From the IMG/VR virus record IMGVR_UViG_3300045988_112560, positions 1 through 39,487 of that record: a stretch of 39,487 nucleotides of DNA; one strand, written 5' to 3'. Of this stretch, positions 6,127-38,952 are shown in pieces. The notes beneath the pieces were generated by a model. The model had not been told where the DNA came from. It was given only the letters and a program-made list of their open reading frames with translations, and did not search any database. The position numbers were made by a program, and so were the translations under genes. This DNA comes from a virus. How positions within the stretch are numbered: position 1 is the stretch's first letter; every line of letters starts with the position of its first letter.

Positions 6127-7158
6127 CTACTTCCCTTCCTTGACGCTGGCCTTGAGCTCGCCCAACACCTTGTCCAATTCCGCCTCGCTCAGGTCGGCGA
6201 ACGATTCCGACGCCATGCCGGTTATCTTCGCGACCGTCTGCAAAGCCTCCTGCTCGTCGGTTACGCCCAACCGTTGGAAGCGGCCGATGGCCTCAGCACG
6301 CTTAGCCTCGACCGGGGAGACCGAGGGCCGGGCTTCCGGCTGCGACTGCTCCGGTTCGTCCACGCTCACGTCAACCGGCGAATCGTCAGCAGTCACGGTG
6401 GGCAGGGGGCGGAACAGTTCGGAATAGTCGGGCGTGGTCTCGTCGGAGACGGCCGCGGACTGGGCTTCGACGCTCACCGGGAGCCATTTGAAGCTGCGGC
6501 GCACCACCGTCTTCAACGCCATGGCCTCATAGTCGGTGCGCCATGGGCCCTTGTTGCCTGCGGGGCTGCGGCGTTTGACGGCCTCGACTTCTTCCTTGGT
6601 CATGTGCACGAACACGCTTCCTGCAGGCAGCAGCTGGGCGTTCACATACACGTCGGTCAGCGTGGCCTCGGTGTGCGGCACGCCACGGGTGGCGCGGAAC
6701 TTGAAGTGCTGGCCGGTCTCATCCTCCCAGTAATCGAATTCGTCGCCCTGGTACACGGCCTGCGCGTGAATGCTCTTCAACTGGCCGGAACGACGGGCCA
6801 ACGCGATCATGCCGCGATAGCCGAGCACGAACATGGCCTCCTTCTGGCCGGTGCGCATGTTCTTGTTACCGAATGGCAGGATGTAGGCCATGCCGAGCCC
6901 GTTCACGTTCGACGGTTCCAGACCGAGGCTCGTGCAGCGCATGAAGCATGACAACACCGATTCGACCGAGCAGCTGGCCAGCTGGGGTTCGCGGTTGATG
7001 GTGCTCACGTACATCTGGTAGAGGCGCTTCTCGCTCATCTCCTGCGGCATGACCGCCGCGATGCGAGGCCAGCTCTTCTCGAGCAGCTGCTTCATCTGGC
7101 GCTGCGGGTTCATGGCCTGCATCTGCACGTTCTGCGCCTGTGTCGCTAACTGTCCCAT
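6127..7158 (-). CDS. recT: RecT-family single-strand annealing recombinase
   Basis: Contains RecT-like core motifs (SVLSCFMRCTSLGLEP...YILPFGN...LGYRGMIALARRSG). AAAGGAGA RBS. It is paired with the YqaJ exonuclease. Confidence 0.8.
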   Translation of the reverse strand: MGQLATQAQNVQMQAMNPQRQMKQLLEKSWPRIAAVMPQEMSEKRLYQMYVSTINREPQLASCSVESVLSCFMRCTSLGLEPSNVNGLGMAYILPFGNKNMRTGQKEAMFVLGYRGMIALARRSGQLKSIHAQAVYQGDEFDYWEDETGQHFKFRATRGVPHTEATLTDVYVNAQLLPAGSVFVHMTKEEVEAVKRRSPAGNKGPWRTDYEAMALKTVVRRSFKWLPVSVEAQSAAVSDETTPDYSELFRPLPTVTADDSPVDVSVDEPEQSQPEARPSVSPVEAKRAEAIGRFQRLGVTDEQEALQTVAKITGMASESFADLSEAELDKVLGELKASVKEGK

Positions 7159-7171
7159 AATCGGTTCTCCT

Positions 7172-13865: not shown

Positions 13866-14053
13866 TTGAGACGGGAGTAGGTCTAAGCGGCTTTTCTCCG
13901 TAGGGTTCGAGTCCCACCGGAGGCACCTTCGCTAGACTGTGGAAAATAGCCGCTTTGCCTTACGGGAGTAGGGCTGAGCGGCTTTTCTTATTCCCGGCTA
14001 TTCCCGCGTATTCCATTGGTTTCCCGAGATAATGTGGGCAAAATGTGGGCAAA
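13821..14053. other. attP region with a tRNA 3'-end-like core and arm-type repeats
   Basis: The core GGGTTCGAGTCCCACCGGAGGCACC at 13903-13927 looks like a T-loop plus acceptor 3' strand. AATGTGGGCAAAATGTGGGCAAA occurs at 13821-13843 and 14031-14053. A 27-nt repeat occurs at 13871-13897 and 13962-13988. Four tandem 10-bp TATTCCC-type units lie at 13989-14028. Confidence 0.65.
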
Positions 14054-14168
14054 AACTGGGCCCCGCGTCTTGTGGCTGCGGGGTCCTGCATTGTCCTCCG
14101 GGTGTCGGCATGGTGGACGGGTTTGGTCTGGCATTTTCCGACACGCCGGTTACTTTTTGTAACCGAGT

Positions 14169-14178
14169 GTGCTATACT
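14169..14178 (+). promoter_or_regulatory. Extended -10 promoter (TGcTATACT) for the cargo operon
   Basis: TGCTATACT lies at 14170-14178 in an AT-rich patch about 58 nt upstream of the ATG at 14236. Confidence 0.4.
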
Positions 14179-14235
14179 AATAACTGTCAACGGGAAGCAC
14201 AAGGCAAGCCCGGAAAGAGCAGAAAGGCTCCGAAA

Positions 14236-14535
14236 ATGGATATCTACCAGATCAGCAGCTACATCTACAACAACACCGGCAGCGCCATCGACACCGAGGT
14301 GGTCAACGAAATCTGCCCCGACGACACGATCGAGGTCAGCAAGCGCGACAGCAGGCAGTTCCTCGCCATCGGCTTCGACCCCACCGACGACGGCTTCATC
14401 CTCGGCACCCTCTGGTATCGCTACGAGAACGGTGACAAGGAGGCGGTGGAGGAAGGCCTCTGCTGGCATATCGACGGCGAGGAAGACTATGGCACGCTCG
14501 ACGATATCTGCGAATACGCCCGCAAGGAGCTCTGA
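14236..14535 (+). CDS. Small highly acidic protein (99 aa)
   Basis: Internal ATG at 14236 with GAAAGG upstream. By my count it has 24 D/E against 7 K/R. The ORF-track N-terminal extension is Cys/Gly-rich and unlikely to be coding. Confidence 0.6.
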   Translation: MDIYQISSYIYNNTGSAIDTEVVNEICPDDTIEVSKRDSRQFLAIGFDPTDDGFILGTLWYRYENGDKEAVEEGLCWHIDGEEDYGTLDDICEYARKEL

Positions 14536-14685
14536 TACGGGCCTATACTGGTTCCATCGGCATCGATAGCCGTATGTCGCCCATCACGGGCGTGGATTGA
14601 AACATTCTTTTTGACGGCAGTATGCCCGGTCTTATGGCCGGGCCTGCGAAAGCACACCTTTTTTCACGTTTTTTAAGGAGTCATC

Positions 14686-15009
14686 ATGACCGTATTCACC
14701 GATCACAAGCGCACCGTCAACCTCGAGCTGCAGAACTGGGACGGCGACGACTGGTCGCCCGACTGGAGCCGCGATTTCTGGAACGTCGGCGAACTGAAGA
14801 ACCTCAACGACGATTCGGACGTGTTCCCGGAGGACGGCCCCTACGCGGCACTGCTCGAAAAGCATGACCTCAGCGCATCCGAGCCGGTCTACGAGGTCGA
14901 GGACATCGATTACCTCATCGACTACGCCAACGACATGATCAACGGCGAAGGCGATTACGCGGACAACCCCAGCCCGAACACCTCGCTGTTCGCCACCGAA
15001 CTGGACTAG
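14686..15009 (+). CDS. Small highly acidic protein (107 aa)
   Basis: AAGGAG RBS at 14675-14680. By my count it has 27 D/E against 5 K/R, and it is Trp/Asp-rich. Confidence 0.65.
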   Translation: MTVFTDHKRTVNLELQNWDGDDWSPDWSRDFWNVGELKNLNDDSDVFPEDGPYAALLEKHDLSASEPVYEVEDIDYLIDYANDMINGEGDYADNPSPNTSLFATELD

Positions 15010-15013
15010 CGCG

Positions 15014-15838
15014 ATGAGCCGGCGGAAGAAACTGCGGCTCACCCCATCATGGTTGCCGGTCATCCGTGACCATCTGGTAGAGGATGGCCGGCAACGCGCC
15101 GCCTTGGCCAAGACGGGCGGATTGCTGCCGGTGGACGAACTGGTCGATTCCATGTACGGCGAGTTGGATGGTTTGGAGGCGGCGAGCCTGTGGTGGGTCA
15201 ACAGCGACATGTGCAAAGTCGTGGAAGCCCAGTTCAGGTCGGGCGAGCTGCCTGAAACCCCCGAATATCCCACGACCAACGGTTTCGTCGTGTACGAGGA
15301 CGGTGTTTCATGTATCACGAATCTTGGCACGATGCTGGTCAACGCCGTCGCATGGGAGGCAACAGCTGGGCGGATAGGTTTGCGCCTGTACACGTCGGAC
15401 CCGGATACGGTGCGGCGCACGGTTCTTGACAAGCGCCTTCCCATTTGTCCGATGGACGTGGAGGTGGTGCCCACCGCGTTGGGCGTGGTGCTTGACGTGA
15501 CTATGGCGTTGATGCGCGAGCCGCGAGTCAGCGCGGTCAAACCGTGCGTTTGGCGGACGGAACGGGACGGCCCCCGCCCCGTGAGCATGGAACGCCAGTC
15601 CGCGAAAGTGAAGATGATAGTGCTGCGTCCGGGGCCCAGAAGCCAATCTTCGGAATGGGCGCCGCGTTCGAGAAGGCGATGCGAGTACCGGTATTTCGTC
15701 CGTGGGTTCTGGCGCAACCAAGCGTACGGGCCTGCGCATTCCAAACGCAGACGGCAATGGGTTGCTCCGTTCGTGAGAGGCCCGGAAGACGGGCCGTTGG
15801 TCATCAAGGAGGCGGTGAGCGTATGGACGCACCAGTGA
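15014..15838 (+). CDS. Hypothetical protein (274 aa) with an Arg-rich C-terminus
   Basis: ATG 4 nt after the upstream stop. GC3 favours this frame. The C-terminus reads RRRCEYRYFVRGFWRNQAYGPAHSKRRRQWVAPFVRGPEDGPL. I recognise no family. Confidence 0.6.
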   Translation: MSRRKKLRLTPSWLPVIRDHLVEDGRQRAALAKTGGLLPVDELVDSMYGELDGLEAASLWWVNSDMCKVVEAQFRSGELPETPEYPTTNGFVVYEDGVSCITNLGTMLVNAVAWEATAGRIGLRLYTSDPDTVRRTVLDKRLPICPMDVEVVPTALGVVLDVTMALMREPRVSAVKPCVWRTERDGPRPVSMERQSAKVKMIVLRPGPRSQSSEWAPRSRRRCEYRYFVRGFWRNQAYGPAHSKRRRQWVAPFVRGPEDGPLVIKEAVSVWTHQ

Positions 15839-16707
15839 CACGGCTGATAGCCGAGTACTTGGCGAGCGTTCCGGCGAAAAGCCGACCCGCGTATAAGCGG
15901 GTGCTGGGCTTGTGGCTGAAATGGTGTTCCGACAACAGGTTGAACGTGCTGCAGATCCGTCGTTTCCATATCGATGCCTACAGGGTGTGGAGGATAGAGC
16001 GGTTGGGCAAACAGCCGGCCACCGTGGCGAGTGAGCTTGTGCCGATATGCTGCTTTTACGAGTACCTGTGGCAGGAGCAGTATATCGAACGCAATCCGGC
16101 AGAACATGTGAAACGTCCCAAGCTGCGCCGTTGGAGTGACGGCTCGTGGCTTCCACCGGAACAGGCCGCGCCATTCCTTGACCTGGCTGAGGCCGACCAC
16201 AGGGCTTTCGTCGGCGCGGCTTGTTGCCTGCTGTTGCTCAACGGGCTGAGGGCAAGCGAACCGCTGAAACTGGACATATCCGACTACTACCGTGTGGGCG
16301 ATACGCCGGTGGTGCATGTCAACAGGAAGTTCGATTGGATGCAGGAGGTCGGCTTGTCCGAACGCGCCGCCAAGGCGGTGGAACGAGCGATAGGCGAACG
16401 TCGGAAAGGGCCGCTGCTTGTCTGGAGGGGCAAGCGCGTCACCTATCCGCAGCTCGCAAGCGTCGTGGCCGTCTTGGGCGAGAAAGTGGGTTCGGCGCGT
16501 AGAATCACGCCGCACTCGTTGCGCCGGTCGTTCGCCACGGAAGCACGACGCCGCAAAATCCCCGACAGGGAGATCATGGCCTCGGGTGGCTGGAGTACCC
16601 GTGAGATGCTTGACAGGTACGACATGAACAGGCTCGCTGTGGAGAACACCGCCAGCGTCGCCGTGGCAGAATCATTGAAGAAGCAGAAAATGGAGGATGC
16701 ATCATGA
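15823..16707 (+). CDS. Xer/Cre-type tyrosine recombinase (294 aa), the second recombinase of the phage
   Basis: ATG at 15823 with AGGAGG RBS and a 16-nt overlap with the upstream gene. The N-terminus looks like a SAM-like core-binding domain. Catalytic motifs are GLRASE, HSLRRSFAT and GGWSTREMLDRY. Confidence 0.8.
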   Translation: MDAPVTRLIAEYLASVPAKSRPAYKRVLGLWLKWCSDNRLNVLQIRRFHIDAYRVWRIERLGKQPATVASELVPICCFYEYLWQEQYIERNPAEHVKRPKLRRWSDGSWLPPEQAAPFLDLAEADHRAFVGAACCLLLLNGLRASEPLKLDISDYYRVGDTPVVHVNRKFDWMQEVGLSERAAKAVERAIGERRKGPLLVWRGKRVTYPQLASVVAVLGEKVGSARRITPHSLRRSFATEARRRKIPDREIMASGGWSTREMLDRYDMNRLAVENTASVAVAESLKKQKMEDAS

Positions 16708-17060
16708 CGATGACGAGCGCCGAGATGAAATGCCTGCGCGAGAGCATGGGCCTGACCACGAAATGGCTGGCCGCCCGGTGGGACGTCGCCGAGTTCAGCG
16801 TGAAGCGCTGGGAACGTGACCGGTATCTGCCGGACAATCTCGAAACCGACCTGCGCGGGCTCAAACGCCGCTTCGACACGGAAGTGCGGCATACGGCCGC
16901 CGTCACCGCCGAAGCCGGTGAGGAGGCCGCCGTCATCGTGCCGAGAACCGAGCCGGAATCGACCGGCGGTATGCCCGCCGCGTGGCACCGTGCCATCGCC
17001 CAACGCGCACGGGAGCTTTCCGGCGCACGAATCCTGTACACCGATGACGAACAGCTGTAG
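16704..17060 (+). CDS. HTH (XRE-like) DNA-binding protein (118 aa)
   Basis: ATGA overlap with the recombinase stop. Contains MKCLRESMGLTTKWLAARWDVAEFSVKRWERDR. Confidence 0.6.
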   Translation: MTMTSAEMKCLRESMGLTTKWLAARWDVAEFSVKRWERDRYLPDNLETDLRGLKRRFDTEVRHTAAVTAEAGEEAAVIVPRTEPESTGGMPAAWHRAIAQRARELSGARILYTDDEQL

Positions 17061-17079
17061 TCGTTACGTCCAGACATGT

Positions 17080-17111
17080 TTTATAACACATATTCGATTA
17101 TGTGTTATAAA
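17080..17111. repeat. Perfect 13-6-13 inverted repeat (lox/dif-like candidate recombination or operator site)
   Basis: TTTATAACACATA-TTCGAT-TATGTGTTATAAA. The spacer is asymmetric. It sits in an AT-rich island 20 nt after the HTH gene stop. Confidence 0.6.
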
Positions 17112-17237
17112 TCGGTGACTTATCATAACCGATTTCGGGGGCGTATGATAGGAATGACAATGACGGCAATCAGCTTTGTCTTCTGGCTCCCTGGTGAACG
17201 CGACTTGTCTGGCCCGATCTGCTAGGGAATTAGACAA

Positions 17238-17298
17238 TCGGCCCCGTCCGGCTCGCAGGTTGACTCTATTCGAGTCGCCTGCGATGCCGGGCGGGGCC
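17238..17298. terminator. Long GC-rich hairpin between the convergent cargo operon and lysis cassette
   Basis: CGGCCCCGTCCGGCTCGCAGG...CCTGCGATGCCGGGCGGGGCCG. On the minus strand it is followed by ATTGTCTAATT. Confidence 0.55.
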
Positions 17299-17311
17299 GA
17301 ACTATGTGTGG

Positions 17312-17572
17312 TCATGCGGCGAGGTCGATGCGTTGTTTGATGGCGCTGACGCCGATGAGCGCGCCGGCGAGGATGCCGAGCGCGTTGAGCGTGGTCACTA
17401 TCGCGTCCACGTGCGGCCAGCCCCATGCGGGGCCGACCGTGTTGACGAACACGGCGAGTGCTGGCAGGACGATGAGGCCGAGCCATTTGAGGATGTCGTA
17501 GACGCGGCTGGGGATGAGCCAGTCTGGCACGATGTCGGTGGATGCCGGTGTATCGGTTGGATTGTCGGTCAT
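17312..17572 (-). CDS. Holin (phage r1t-type)
   Basis: ATG at 17572 with GGAGC RBS. Contains YDILKWLGLIVLPALAVFVNTVGPAWGWPHVDAIVTTLNALGILAGALIGVS, which matches the r1t-holin pattern as recalled. Confidence 0.75.
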   Translation of the reverse strand: MTDNPTDTPASTDIVPDWLIPSRVYDILKWLGLIVLPALAVFVNTVGPAWGWPHVDAIVTTLNALGILAGALIGVSAIKQRIDLAA

Positions 17573-17641: not shown

Positions 17642-18802
17642 TTAGCGGCAGGTCACCACATCGCCCACGTAGTAGACGTTGATGTTGCCGGATGGTACGG
17701 TGCAGCGGCTGACGCTGTAGCCGTGGGACGTGGCGAAATCCCACACGGTATCACCCCACTGGAGGACCTTGGAGACCCCGGTGGACGGTGCGGGGGTGGC
17801 AGTAGAGCCGCCGCCGTAGGTGACGACGTCGCCCACGTAGTAGCGGTTGATGTCACCGCTTGGCGTGTGCCATGCGGACAGGGGCCATGCGTTGTAGGCT
17901 ACGGCGAGTCCCCAGATGGTCTCGCCCCACTGCATGACGTGGCTGATGCCACCCGTGTTGGTGTCGGCCGGGGGAGTGTTCGGCTGTGCGGGCGCGGCCG
18001 GTGTGGCCGGTGGCGTGGAGCCGCCGGCGGGGTTGGCGTACAGGTCCCACTGCCATGCGTCGCCGCGGAACAGGTTGAGGTCGATGGGACTCCACGTGTT
18101 GACGACACCGGTGCCGCTGTACTGTCGCATGGCCTCGCCGTACGCGCCCAGCATCCACGGATTGGCCTGATAGCCGGTCGGGCTCATGTTCGCGTATTGG
18201 GCGATCCACAAACCGTATCGGTCGCGGATGTCCTGCGGGATGGTGCCGGCGACCGGGCCGGTATACAGCAATGGGCGCACACCGCCCGAAAGCCGTTCGC
18301 ACTCACTCATGAAGCGGCGTACCCAGTCCCAATCGCCCCATGCGGGGTTGTCGTCCATCTCCCAGTCGAGCGCCACGATGCCGTGACGCCAATAGTTCGA
18401 CGTATTCGTGTAGAAGAACTGGGCTTCGGCCTCCGGATTGCCTCCCATGGCGTAATGGTAGAGGCCGAATTTCTTGCCGGATGCCTGCGCTTGGGCGATC
18501 ATGCGGTTGGCGTCCGTGTTGACGCCGGACACGAGGCAGTTGTTGTTGACTTGCCCGGTGCCCCATGTGGTGCCGACGACAACGAAGTCGGCCTGCGTGT
18601 TGGCGATGTCGATGCCGCACTGCCAGTTGGACACGTCGATGCCCTGCATGTCCGCGTGCGCGGTCGCAGGGAGCGTCAGCATGCACATGGCGGCGACGAG
18701 CGCCGTGACTTTGGCGAGCAGCCGCTTATACCATGGTTTCGGCTTGCTTTTGTTTTTGAACTTGCCCAAATTCGTTTTCCTTCCTGTGTGTTGGGTGGGC
18801 AT
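17642..18802 (-). CDS. Secreted endolysin: signal peptide, GH25 muramidase and two LysM-like C-terminal repeats
   Basis: The N-terminus KRLLAKVTALVAAMCMLTLPATAHA-DMQGIDVSNWQ leads into the GH25 signature. Two ~45-aa repeats follow (QWGETIWGLA..VGDVVTY and QWGDTVWDFA..VGDVVTC). Confidence 0.8.
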   Translation of the reverse strand: MPTQHTGRKTNLGKFKNKSKPKPWYKRLLAKVTALVAAMCMLTLPATAHADMQGIDVSNWQCGIDIANTQADFVVVGTTWGTGQVNNNCLVSGVNTDANRMIAQAQASGKKFGLYHYAMGGNPEAEAQFFYTNTSNYWRHGIVALDWEMDDNPAWGDWDWVRRFMSECERLSGGVRPLLYTGPVAGTIPQDIRDRYGLWIAQYANMSPTGYQANPWMLGAYGEAMRQYSGTGVVNTWSPIDLNLFRGDAWQWDLYANPAGGSTPPATPAAPAQPNTPPADTNTGGISHVMQWGETIWGLAVAYNAWPLSAWHTPSGDINRYYVGDVVTYGGGSTATPAPSTGVSKVLQWGDTVWDFATSHGYSVSRCTVPSGNINVYYVGDVVTCR

Positions 18803-38876: not shown

Positions 38877-38952
38877 TGGCATGCGCGGTTGGCTTCGATC
38901 CAACGACCTGCGGTTTTGGAGACCGCCGCTCTACCTGCTGAGCTACGCGCAT
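38877..38952 (-). tRNA. tRNA-Trp (anticodon CCA), CCA end encoded
   Basis: Manual cloverleaf, 76 nt: ATGCGCG-TA-GCTC-AGCAGGTA-GAGC-G-GCGGT-CTCCAAA-ACCGC-AGGTC-GTTGG-ATCGAAG-CCAAC-CGCGCAT-G-CCA. All stems are Watson-Crick, U33 is present, and the discriminator is G73. The T-loop has A at position 54, which is atypical. Confidence 0.8.

Follow-up and report, generated by a model that had tools for sequence, protein, structure and literature searches.

A translationally coupled pair of p274 and an Xer-like tyrosine recombinase, a possible site-specific recombination module in the attP-adjacent cargo of a Bifidobacterium phage

The Xer recombinases XerS and XerH have their recombination site adjoining the gene, and the repSA-xis-int operons of pSAM2-type actinomycete integrative elements group a tyrosine recombinase with a small DNA-binding protein and an element gene. 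In Bifidobacterium prophages the tyrosine invertase Rin is encoded in addition to the integrase (PMC6109161), and the lysogeny module of corynephage φ16 was described as 'unusual', with two putative integrases, one of which, gp28, could not use attP (PMC5506516, 2017). Here we analyse the IMG/VR record IMGVR_UViG_3300045988_112560, a stretch of 39,487 nt from a temperate Bifidobacterium siphovirus, the whole of which is called the window below. Between attP and the lysis cassette its plus strand carries an operon encoding a 274-aa protein (p274, 15014-15838), a 294-aa tyrosine recombinase that is armless and Xer-like (15823-16707) and a putative XRE-type helix-turn-helix (HTH) protein of 118 aa (HTH118, 16704-17060), with overlaps of 16 nt between the first two genes and of 4 nt (ATGA) between the last two. 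These three open reading frames (ORFs), their coordinates and their overlaps are as given in an original prediction made from the letters of the DNA, and the place that it assigned to the operon is also correct, the holin matching phrog_881. The recombinase is of a well-known class, its partner family and the reason for their pairing are unfamiliar, and the module was noticed earlier in φ16 and never explained. We propose, with a probability of roughly one in three, that the locus is a self-contained site-specific recombination module in which p274 is a DNA-binding accessory and a 13-6-13 palindrome just past the operon is a possible site in this lineage.

The recombinase matched PF00589 over residues 109-267 (56.2 bits against a cut-off of 27.1, E=4.7e-15) and, weakly, the SAM-like core-binding domain PF02899, and the Pfam search gave no match to an arm-binding domain in the 294-aa protein, which sets it apart from the Lambda-type integrases. 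The residues R143, K169, H231, R234 and Y266 are at least 97% conserved among 77 unique homologues, the same five are invariant in an alignment of 20 sequences that includes φ16 and Bifidobacterium phage BigBern1, and W258 fills the H/W catalytic position. Because the catalytic R, K, H, R and Y are conserved in the 77 homologues the enzyme is active-looking, and the second armless Xer-type recombinase that had been called from its motifs is confirmed, with its active-site residues intact. The nearest NCBIfam families are XerD (TIGR02225, 62.9 bits against a cut-off of 329.6), XerC (TIGR02224, 60.9 against 335.15) and XerA, the equivalog cut-offs for XerC/XerD orthology not being reached, and the only PDB sequence relatives are XerD (1a0p) and XerA (5hxy). 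By its sequence, the protein, for which the search for relatives returned 27 homologues, is an active-looking, armless, Xer-like recombinase that is not a XerC/D orthologue. In a sister recombinase clade from IMG/VR (L259-L265; L numbers denote the loci compared here), with 47% identity, p274 is absent.

The recombinase gene is coupled to p274 by a signal at 15806-15825 (plus strand), where AAGGAGG and the recombinase ATG lie within the final codons of p274: the AAGGAG falls in the K-E codons and the ATG in the I-W codons of the conserved p274 motif KETVRIW(R/K)R. This embedded layout was also found in BigBern1 and in the Bifidobacterium prophages L082, L054 and L079, and φ16 has kept the overlap and the ATG, its AAGGAG not being clear; across relatives the overlap measures 13-16 nt. 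In BigBern1, L082, L054 and L079 the recombinase frame is closed by stop codons shortly before the ATG, which rules out a p274-recombinase fusion protein produced by a programmed frameshift.

In IMG/VR, 94 stretches encode a relative of p274; 80 of them were kept, and 81 loci were examined. A recombinase homologue directly follows p274 in 79 of the 81 loci, the two exceptions being a contig that ends just past p274 (L071) and a locus without a recombinase match (L081). BigBern1 likewise has the pair, alongside a separate integrase of 477 aa, as do φ16 (ORF29 and ORF28) and Varibaculum and Corynebacterium genomes, and the order of the pair is reversed in Propionicimonas, where the recombinase stands upstream of p274. 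The core of the cassette is widespread in Bifidobacteriaceae prophages and occurs in some other Actinobacteria. HTH118, which is 94-96% conserved in close relatives, was found only in these and in B. vansinderenii; the loci that have it are L002-L005 and L089, plus L079, where the gene stands upstream of p274; elsewhere the third place is taken by an unrelated XRE-type HTH gene (seven loci), by a gene for an acidic 209-aa or 165-aa protein, by a terminator or by nothing. The XRE-like assignment of HTH118 agrees with its match to phrog_955 (E=2e-7), but in Pfam its score against HTH_31 lies under the cut-off (E=0.028, 15.2 bits, cut-off 27), as does that against an MqsA-type HTH model (1.6e-4). 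Thus, the three-gene operon of the original prediction stands as far as the translational coupling to p274 goes, but its third gene varies between lineages: across phages and genomes the pair recurs and the trio does not, and the conserved unit is the pair of p274 and recombinase. The module proves to be common, but it has no annotated or known role.

Because the catalytic residues are conserved, p274 is paired with the recombinase in 79 of 81 loci and the pairing spans genera, we infer that the two proteins work together as an independent recombination module. This module would be separate from the Int/attP system, and it does not seem to be an integration system because its φ16 homologue gp28 is reported to be unable to use the φ16 attP.

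The 274-aa partner, which the original prediction could not recognise, matched only phrog_15934, a family of unannotated function (E=2.4e-23, p274 residues 159-272 against positions 190-304 of the 305 in the profile). Pfam, NCBIfam, PADLOC and PDB sequence searches gave no match to p274, even with the family profile, and neither did Pfam for 16 family members, 10 long members and 10 tail-only proteins; a precomputed PF26125 tag on P0006 was discarded, as hmmscan did not reproduce it and it is absent from the literature. A word-indexed search returned 26 p274 homologues, and an exhaustive hidden Markov model (HMM) search with the family, run on clusters defined at 50% identity, returned 9,106 cluster representatives at E<=1e-3 and 4,429 at E<=1e-10, which places p274 among the larger uncharacterised families carried by phages, plasmids and conjugative elements of Actinobacteria. 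In the AlphaFold2 model of p274 (54-sequence alignment; predicted local distance difference test, pLDDT, 89; predicted template-modelling score, pTM, 0.84) an N-terminal helical hairpin is followed by an alpha/beta domain, and the Arg-rich tail, residues 226-264, folds as a small beta domain. Foldseek found no fold neighbour for either p274 model in the PDB, and among the BFVD viral models the neighbours were only uncharacterised phage proteins, with low TM-scores.

Conservation in p274 is centred on the tail, and residues 206-274 (69 aa) have an isoelectric point (pI) of 11.4, the N-terminal domain being neutral; the basic, beta-rich C-terminal domain of ~55 aa probably binds nucleic acid. 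Because no D, E, H, K, S or Y position is invariant or nearly so across the family, p274 appears to be non-enzymatic. Outside Actinobacteria the tail is also joined to unrelated N-terminal regions, which are themselves without a Pfam match. It is reasonable to suppose that p274 would bind DNA as an accessory or targeting factor and so make up for the missing arm domain of the recombinase. In a stronger form of this proposal, which we regard as rather unlikely, p274 and the recombinase would be an obligate two-component tyrosine recombinase, with p274, of a previously unseen fold, as its DNA-targeting subunit; its target would be a non-att site or else foreign or competing DNA, and it would represent a new kind of recombinase-based system for defence, anti-defence or maintenance.

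As for the site, the recombinase would be expected to act on a simple core-type sequence, and the best candidate is the single perfect palindrome TTTATAACACATA-TTCGAT-TATGTGTTATAAA (17080-17111), which lies 20 nt after the operon and inside the cargo. Its two arms are perfect over 13 bp and enclose an asymmetric spacer of 6 bp, as in simple core sites of tyrosine recombinases; relatives share the arms without change and have TCCGAT as spacer, and the inner arms, CATA..TATG, presumably resemble those of dif. The palindrome fits a core site because of its perfect 13-bp arms, its asymmetric spacer, its location within the cargo and the retention of the arms while the spacer differs. The 13-bp arm has no second copy in the window. 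Given a single site in each genome, the module would resolve dimers, concatemers or tandem prophages, or would recombine with a second site elsewhere, in a reaction resembling Cre/loxP or XerS/difSL, and the HTH protein would regulate the operon. Cre/lox-like resolution, one of the roles raised in the original prediction, is possible at 17080-17111.

Several observations weigh against this proposal. The phage integrates and is cos- or terminase-packaged, with no evident need for a resolvase, and the authors of the φ16 study found no other attP or att-like site near ORF28 (PMC5506516). In the sister clade L259-L265 the recombinase is coupled by a 4-nt overlap to a different upstream protein of 186 aa (sequence MQDVNIVTTGDG...GGKWDAATRSWKF...), and therefore this recombinase lineage is repeatedly the second gene of a two-gene operon with varied partners. 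Most members of the p274 family have no adjoining recombinase, and p274 therefore has a function of its own: the gene stands between Int and lysis genes, with no recombinase, in the Propionibacterium phages PFR1, PFR2 and G4, after the primase gene in Streptomyces phage Yara, close to the gene of an SNF2 helicase on a phage contig from soil, on 82 actinobacterial plasmids and in conjugative-element neighbourhoods in Amycolatopsis, Lentzea and Saccharothrix. The p274 tail showed no similarity to integrase N-terminal arm domains in hhalign (probability 0.24%, 8 columns), a weak test given an integrase profile of nine sequences; the idea that the tail is an integrase arm-binding domain supplied in trans was dropped for this want of profile similarity.

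The remaining objections concern the palindrome, which in IMG/VR occurs in only one close lineage (L002-L005 and close kin), together with the equally lineage-specific HTH gene, and which can be read as an ATAACA-17-TGT-TATAAA promoter with an extended -10. Because of this co-occurrence and the plausible extended -10 promoter inside it, the palindrome may be an operator or a promoter. In B. vansinderenii the same trio has different repeats at the position of the palindrome, and in other lineages the recombinase is followed by GC-rich terminators or by promoter-embedded short palindromes. In 89 loci the DNA up to 1.5 kb from the module was scanned for palindromes whose arms measure 12 bp or more; all hits were lineage-specific sites, GC-rich terminators or palindromes embedded in promoters, and a universal lox-like site beside the module was rejected on this ground.

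In loci of the L135, L141 and L148 type, from actinomycetes with large genomes, a RAMA-domain protein is encoded just upstream of the p274 family gene, and genes for Replic_Relax, a TraG/TrwB-like type IV coupling protein and NlpC/P60-SLT proteins lie nearby. Genes of these four kinds are likewise found in the neighbourhoods in Amycolatopsis, Lentzea and Saccharothrix.

The cassette is part of an optional segment at 14057-17235 (plus strand; left edge ±~10 nt), between the P' arm of attP and the lysis-operon terminator, which was delimited by comparison with cargo-less relatives found via the endolysin. Homology to these relatives covers 12007-14066 and begins again at 17236, and in L251, L217, L225, L177, L196 and L220 about 40 nt stand in place of the segment. 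None of the cassette genes is present in L198, L217 and L251, whose integrases are 97-99% identical to that of the window, nor in L177, whose lysis region is 99% identical, and in other relatives the slot is filled with other small genes. Conversely, in L002 this cargo is combined with an integrase of just 45% identity, and homology starts on the right edge of the presumed attP core, at 13939. The segment is thus optional, horizontally exchanged cargo in a block of lysogeny direction, and the cargo slot named in the original prediction is a true one. Its further suggestion of a nested integrative element fits in that the cargo is optional and found with two different integrases, but no duplication marks the borders at ~14057 and 17235, and the window has no att-like repeats flanking them. 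The GC content at third codon positions (GC3), said to be lower than in the structural genes, is lower in p274 (0.75) and the recombinase (0.74) than in the tail and tape-measure genes (0.84-0.86), but equal to that of int (0.74), portal (0.73) and terminase (0.77). The lower GC3 is therefore no foreign signature, and a foreign base composition is unsupported by the composition measures.

The phage's own integrase, a 396-aa protein, is encoded outside the cassette at 12675-13865 (plus strand; PF00589 at 1.1e-19, SAM_3, a weak PF14657 arm match and phrog_1 at 4e-69). The presumed attP (13815-14053, plus strand) is recognised by two 29-nt and two 27-nt repeats that flank a core resembling a tRNA 3' end (GGTTCGAGTCCCACCGGAGGCACC, ~13903-13933). 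The 29-nt repeat contains AATGTGGGCAAAATGTGGGCAAA, and one copy lies within the last codons of int; in L198 the DNA between both 29-nt copies, core included, is deleted. A block of lower GC at 9000-12700 (0.50-0.57) holds lysogeny-side genes, among them those for an ImmA/IrrE-like metalloprotease (10276-10692), a Sie-like protein (10983-11651) and, directly upstream of int, an unannotated 302-aa ORF (11763-12671). The order ImmA/IrrE-like, Sie-like, Int, p274, recombinase, lysis, in which the genes up to the recombinase form a plus-strand block, is that of the φ16 lysogeny module.

Dispensable cargo in a variable slot beside Sie-like and ImmA-like genes is also what would be expected of a lysogen-expressed moron with a role in defence, superinfection exclusion or anti-defence and establishment, in which p274 would be the effector or sensor and the recombinase an auxiliary or a non-canonical component, for example one that attacks or traps incoming DNA; we consider this reading possible, if somewhat improbable. 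In actinobacteriophages, as Dedrick et al. reportedly found in 2017, prophage defence genes cluster beside the integration cassette. The small neighbours of the module are in keeping with such a role: o107, a very acidic 107-aa protein (pI 4.05, net charge -22) encoded just upstream of p274 (14686-15009, plus strand), could be a DNA mimic. The repeated promoter cassettes around the module in some lineages point the same way, and p274, which is found on plasmids, next to a RAMA-domain protein in conjugative elements and next to primase or helicase genes in lytic phages, has a spread of anti-defence or establishment type. However, p274, the recombinase, o107 and o167 had no match in PADLOC-DB v2, where the HTH protein gave a marginal one (RmrA, E=0.0044), and the strict conservation of all catalytic residues speaks for real recombination chemistry. 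To our knowledge, no described defence system has a tyrosine recombinase as its effector, and in the literature we found only the φ16 remark on either a recombinase-based defence system or a 'second integrase'.

o107 had no Pfam, PHROG or PADLOC match, and its homologues stand upstream of the module in some loci and downstream in others. They are accompanied by homologues of a 99-aa small cargo protein (14236-14535, plus strand; probable true start inside a 167-aa ORF; no Pfam or PHROG match), whose place relative to the module also varies. Other small proteins near the module likewise seem rich in Asp and Glu, namely this 99-aa protein, the 209-aa protein after the recombinase (24 loci) and φ16 ORF27; acidic small proteins beside the module would be in line with DNA mimicry or an immunity-type role.

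Upstream of the first cargo gene the window carries a promoter-like element (14141-14185, plus strand) with a GGTTAC-N5-GTAACC palindrome, a diverged copy of a family, ACACGCCCGACTTGA-[short palindrome]-TATAxT, that is found beside the module in relatives; GTTAC-N5-GTAAC occurs just once in the window, against a chance expectation of 0.03. In other lineages such a ACACGCCCGACTTGA-palindrome-TATAxT element, spaced like a sigma-70 promoter with an operator, comes after the recombinase. In L024, L031, L051, L060 and L072 a second copy precedes the operon, and the block is flanked by direct repeats of 73-104 nt with 85-100% identity; L075 has a ACACGCCCGACTTGA-type motif on both sides of the module. 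Judging from this layout, the ACACGCCCGACTTGA-type elements would be promoters. They precede cargo genes in these six loci and in ~30 more, and their palindrome arms change together between lineages (GTTACC/GGTAAC, GATACC/GGTATC, ATTACTCC/GGAGTAAT), which suggests operators for a co-evolving repressor.

The enclosure of a block of small gene, p274, recombinase and HTH gene, in those five loci, by direct repeats that each contain a palindrome raises the alternative that the cassette is a small mobile unit, the recombinase moving it or neighbouring cargo between slots via the short palindromes of the promoter-like elements, in an integron-like manner. Homology between locus types breaks at the element, cassettes of the o107/o99 type lie upstream in some loci and downstream in others, and the same cargo is found with integrases only 45% identical. 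Nevertheless, we hold this alternative to be quite improbable: the repeats have the make-up of sigma-70 promoters, with a -35, a 16-17-nt spacer holding the palindrome, a -10 and then a ribosome-binding site and ATG; the central spacers of the element palindromes, of 3-5 nt, are too short for strand exchange by a tyrosine recombinase; the borders of the window cargo coincide with no such element and show no duplication; and the mosaicism is explained by homologous recombination in the conserved flanks.

The original prediction had also considered an invertase. Its precedent, Rin, is real, and the Bifidobacterium prophages with armless tyrosine invertases include a second invertible tail locus without an adjacent recombinase (PMC6109161), so that a DNA invertase for phase variation, Rin- or Tsr15-like, might act in trans on a phage or host target. 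One segment of ~230 nt has opposite orientations in L024 (4037-4272) and in L051 (4434-4640) and L060 (8613-8845); it holds a terminator hairpin and lies ~0.5-1 kb downstream of the module in prophages that are otherwise collinear. This is, however, the only inversion among 83 related loci. In the window rix-like sites are not enriched (3 against 5.7 expected), CAGGGTTA occurs twice, 16 kb apart, no convincing inverted repeats surround the tail or lysis genes, and all of the tail genes point the same way, a cassette array being absent. A Rin-like shufflon was rejected, there being no rix enrichment, no cassette array and no inverted-repeat set, and an invertase of any kind is disfavoured to the point of being very unlikely. 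We rank the recombination module first, followed by the defence or anti-defence moron, the self-mobilising cassette and the invertase, with part of the probability assigned to none of the four.

Between the palindrome and the terminator, the non-coding stretch 17112-17235 is as conserved as genes in L002 and L005. Read from the sequence, it contains a conserved 26-codon ORF or small transcript at 17145-17225 (plus strand); the ORF would encode a hydrophobic peptide, and in L002 and L005 the region shows both synonymous and non-synonymous changes. Its product may be either a small protein or a small RNA. The right border of the cargo is formed by a long GC-rich hairpin (17236-17300), the probable lysis-operon terminator, which is shared with cargo-less relatives and whose inner stem varies in a compensatory way. 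A search of 13840-17320 against Rfam gave no match.

Elsewhere in the window, the early region encodes an adjacent pair of a RecT-like annealing protein (phrog_148) and a RecE-like exonuclease (phrog_434) at 6127-8161 on the minus strand, and a tRNA-Trp (CCA) at 38877-38952, also on the minus strand, lies near the window end and belongs either to the phage or to flanking DNA. The 3' part of the endolysin gene (17645-17863) has two 51-nt repeats with 78% identity, 168 nt apart, which probably encode duplicated cell-wall-binding modules.

The p274 family is large (9,106 clusters), with a confident model and no neighbour among solved structures, and the recurrent coupling of p274 to an intact Xer-type recombinase is a concrete lead on its function; if the two-component reading were true, it would be the first functional handle on the whole family. 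The locus may also offer an orthogonal recombinase-and-site pair for Bifidobacterium or Corynebacterium genetics, and it may improve the reading of the attP-adjacent cargo slot in gut Bifidobacterium prophages.

Compared with described systems, the best sequence relatives of the recombinase are XerC/XerD, XerS/difSL, XerH/difH and XerA, which share its core-binding and catalytic domains and its lack of an arm domain; the site adjoins the XerS and XerH genes just as the candidate palindrome adjoins the operon here. However, the Xer systems are chromosomal housekeeping systems, whereas the window recombinase is phage cargo coupled to p274 and scores ~60 bits against cut-offs of ~330. Cre/loxP of P1 is similar in being a single phage-borne armless tyrosine recombinase, and its nearby site has 13-bp inverted arms and a short asymmetric spacer like the candidate palindrome, but the loxP spacer is 8 bp instead of 6 bp, Cre works without a partner protein, and P1 is a plasmid prophage that needs resolution, whereas the present phage integrates; in the PDB sequence search the recombinase had no detectable match to Cre. 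Rin, compared by layout and sites, is likewise an armless tyrosine recombinase additional to the integrase, in the same host genus, but it stands beside a receptor-binding-protein cassette array with 11-bp rix sites, neither of which is present in the window. From the repSA-xis-int operons the present one differs in that p274 lacks the conserved catalytic residues expected of a rolling-circle initiator, the recombinase is armless and Int is already encoded by the phage. The φ16 pair gp29-gp28 belongs to another host genus, with tblastn identities of ~26% for p274 and ~29% for the recombinase, and it has neither an HTH third gene nor an AT-rich palindrome; nevertheless it is the same pair, ORF29 being the p274 homologue and ORF28 matching PF00589 at 5.5e-23, joined by a 13-nt overlap and placed as in the window, where the pair follows Int within the lysogeny block and converges with the lysis genes.

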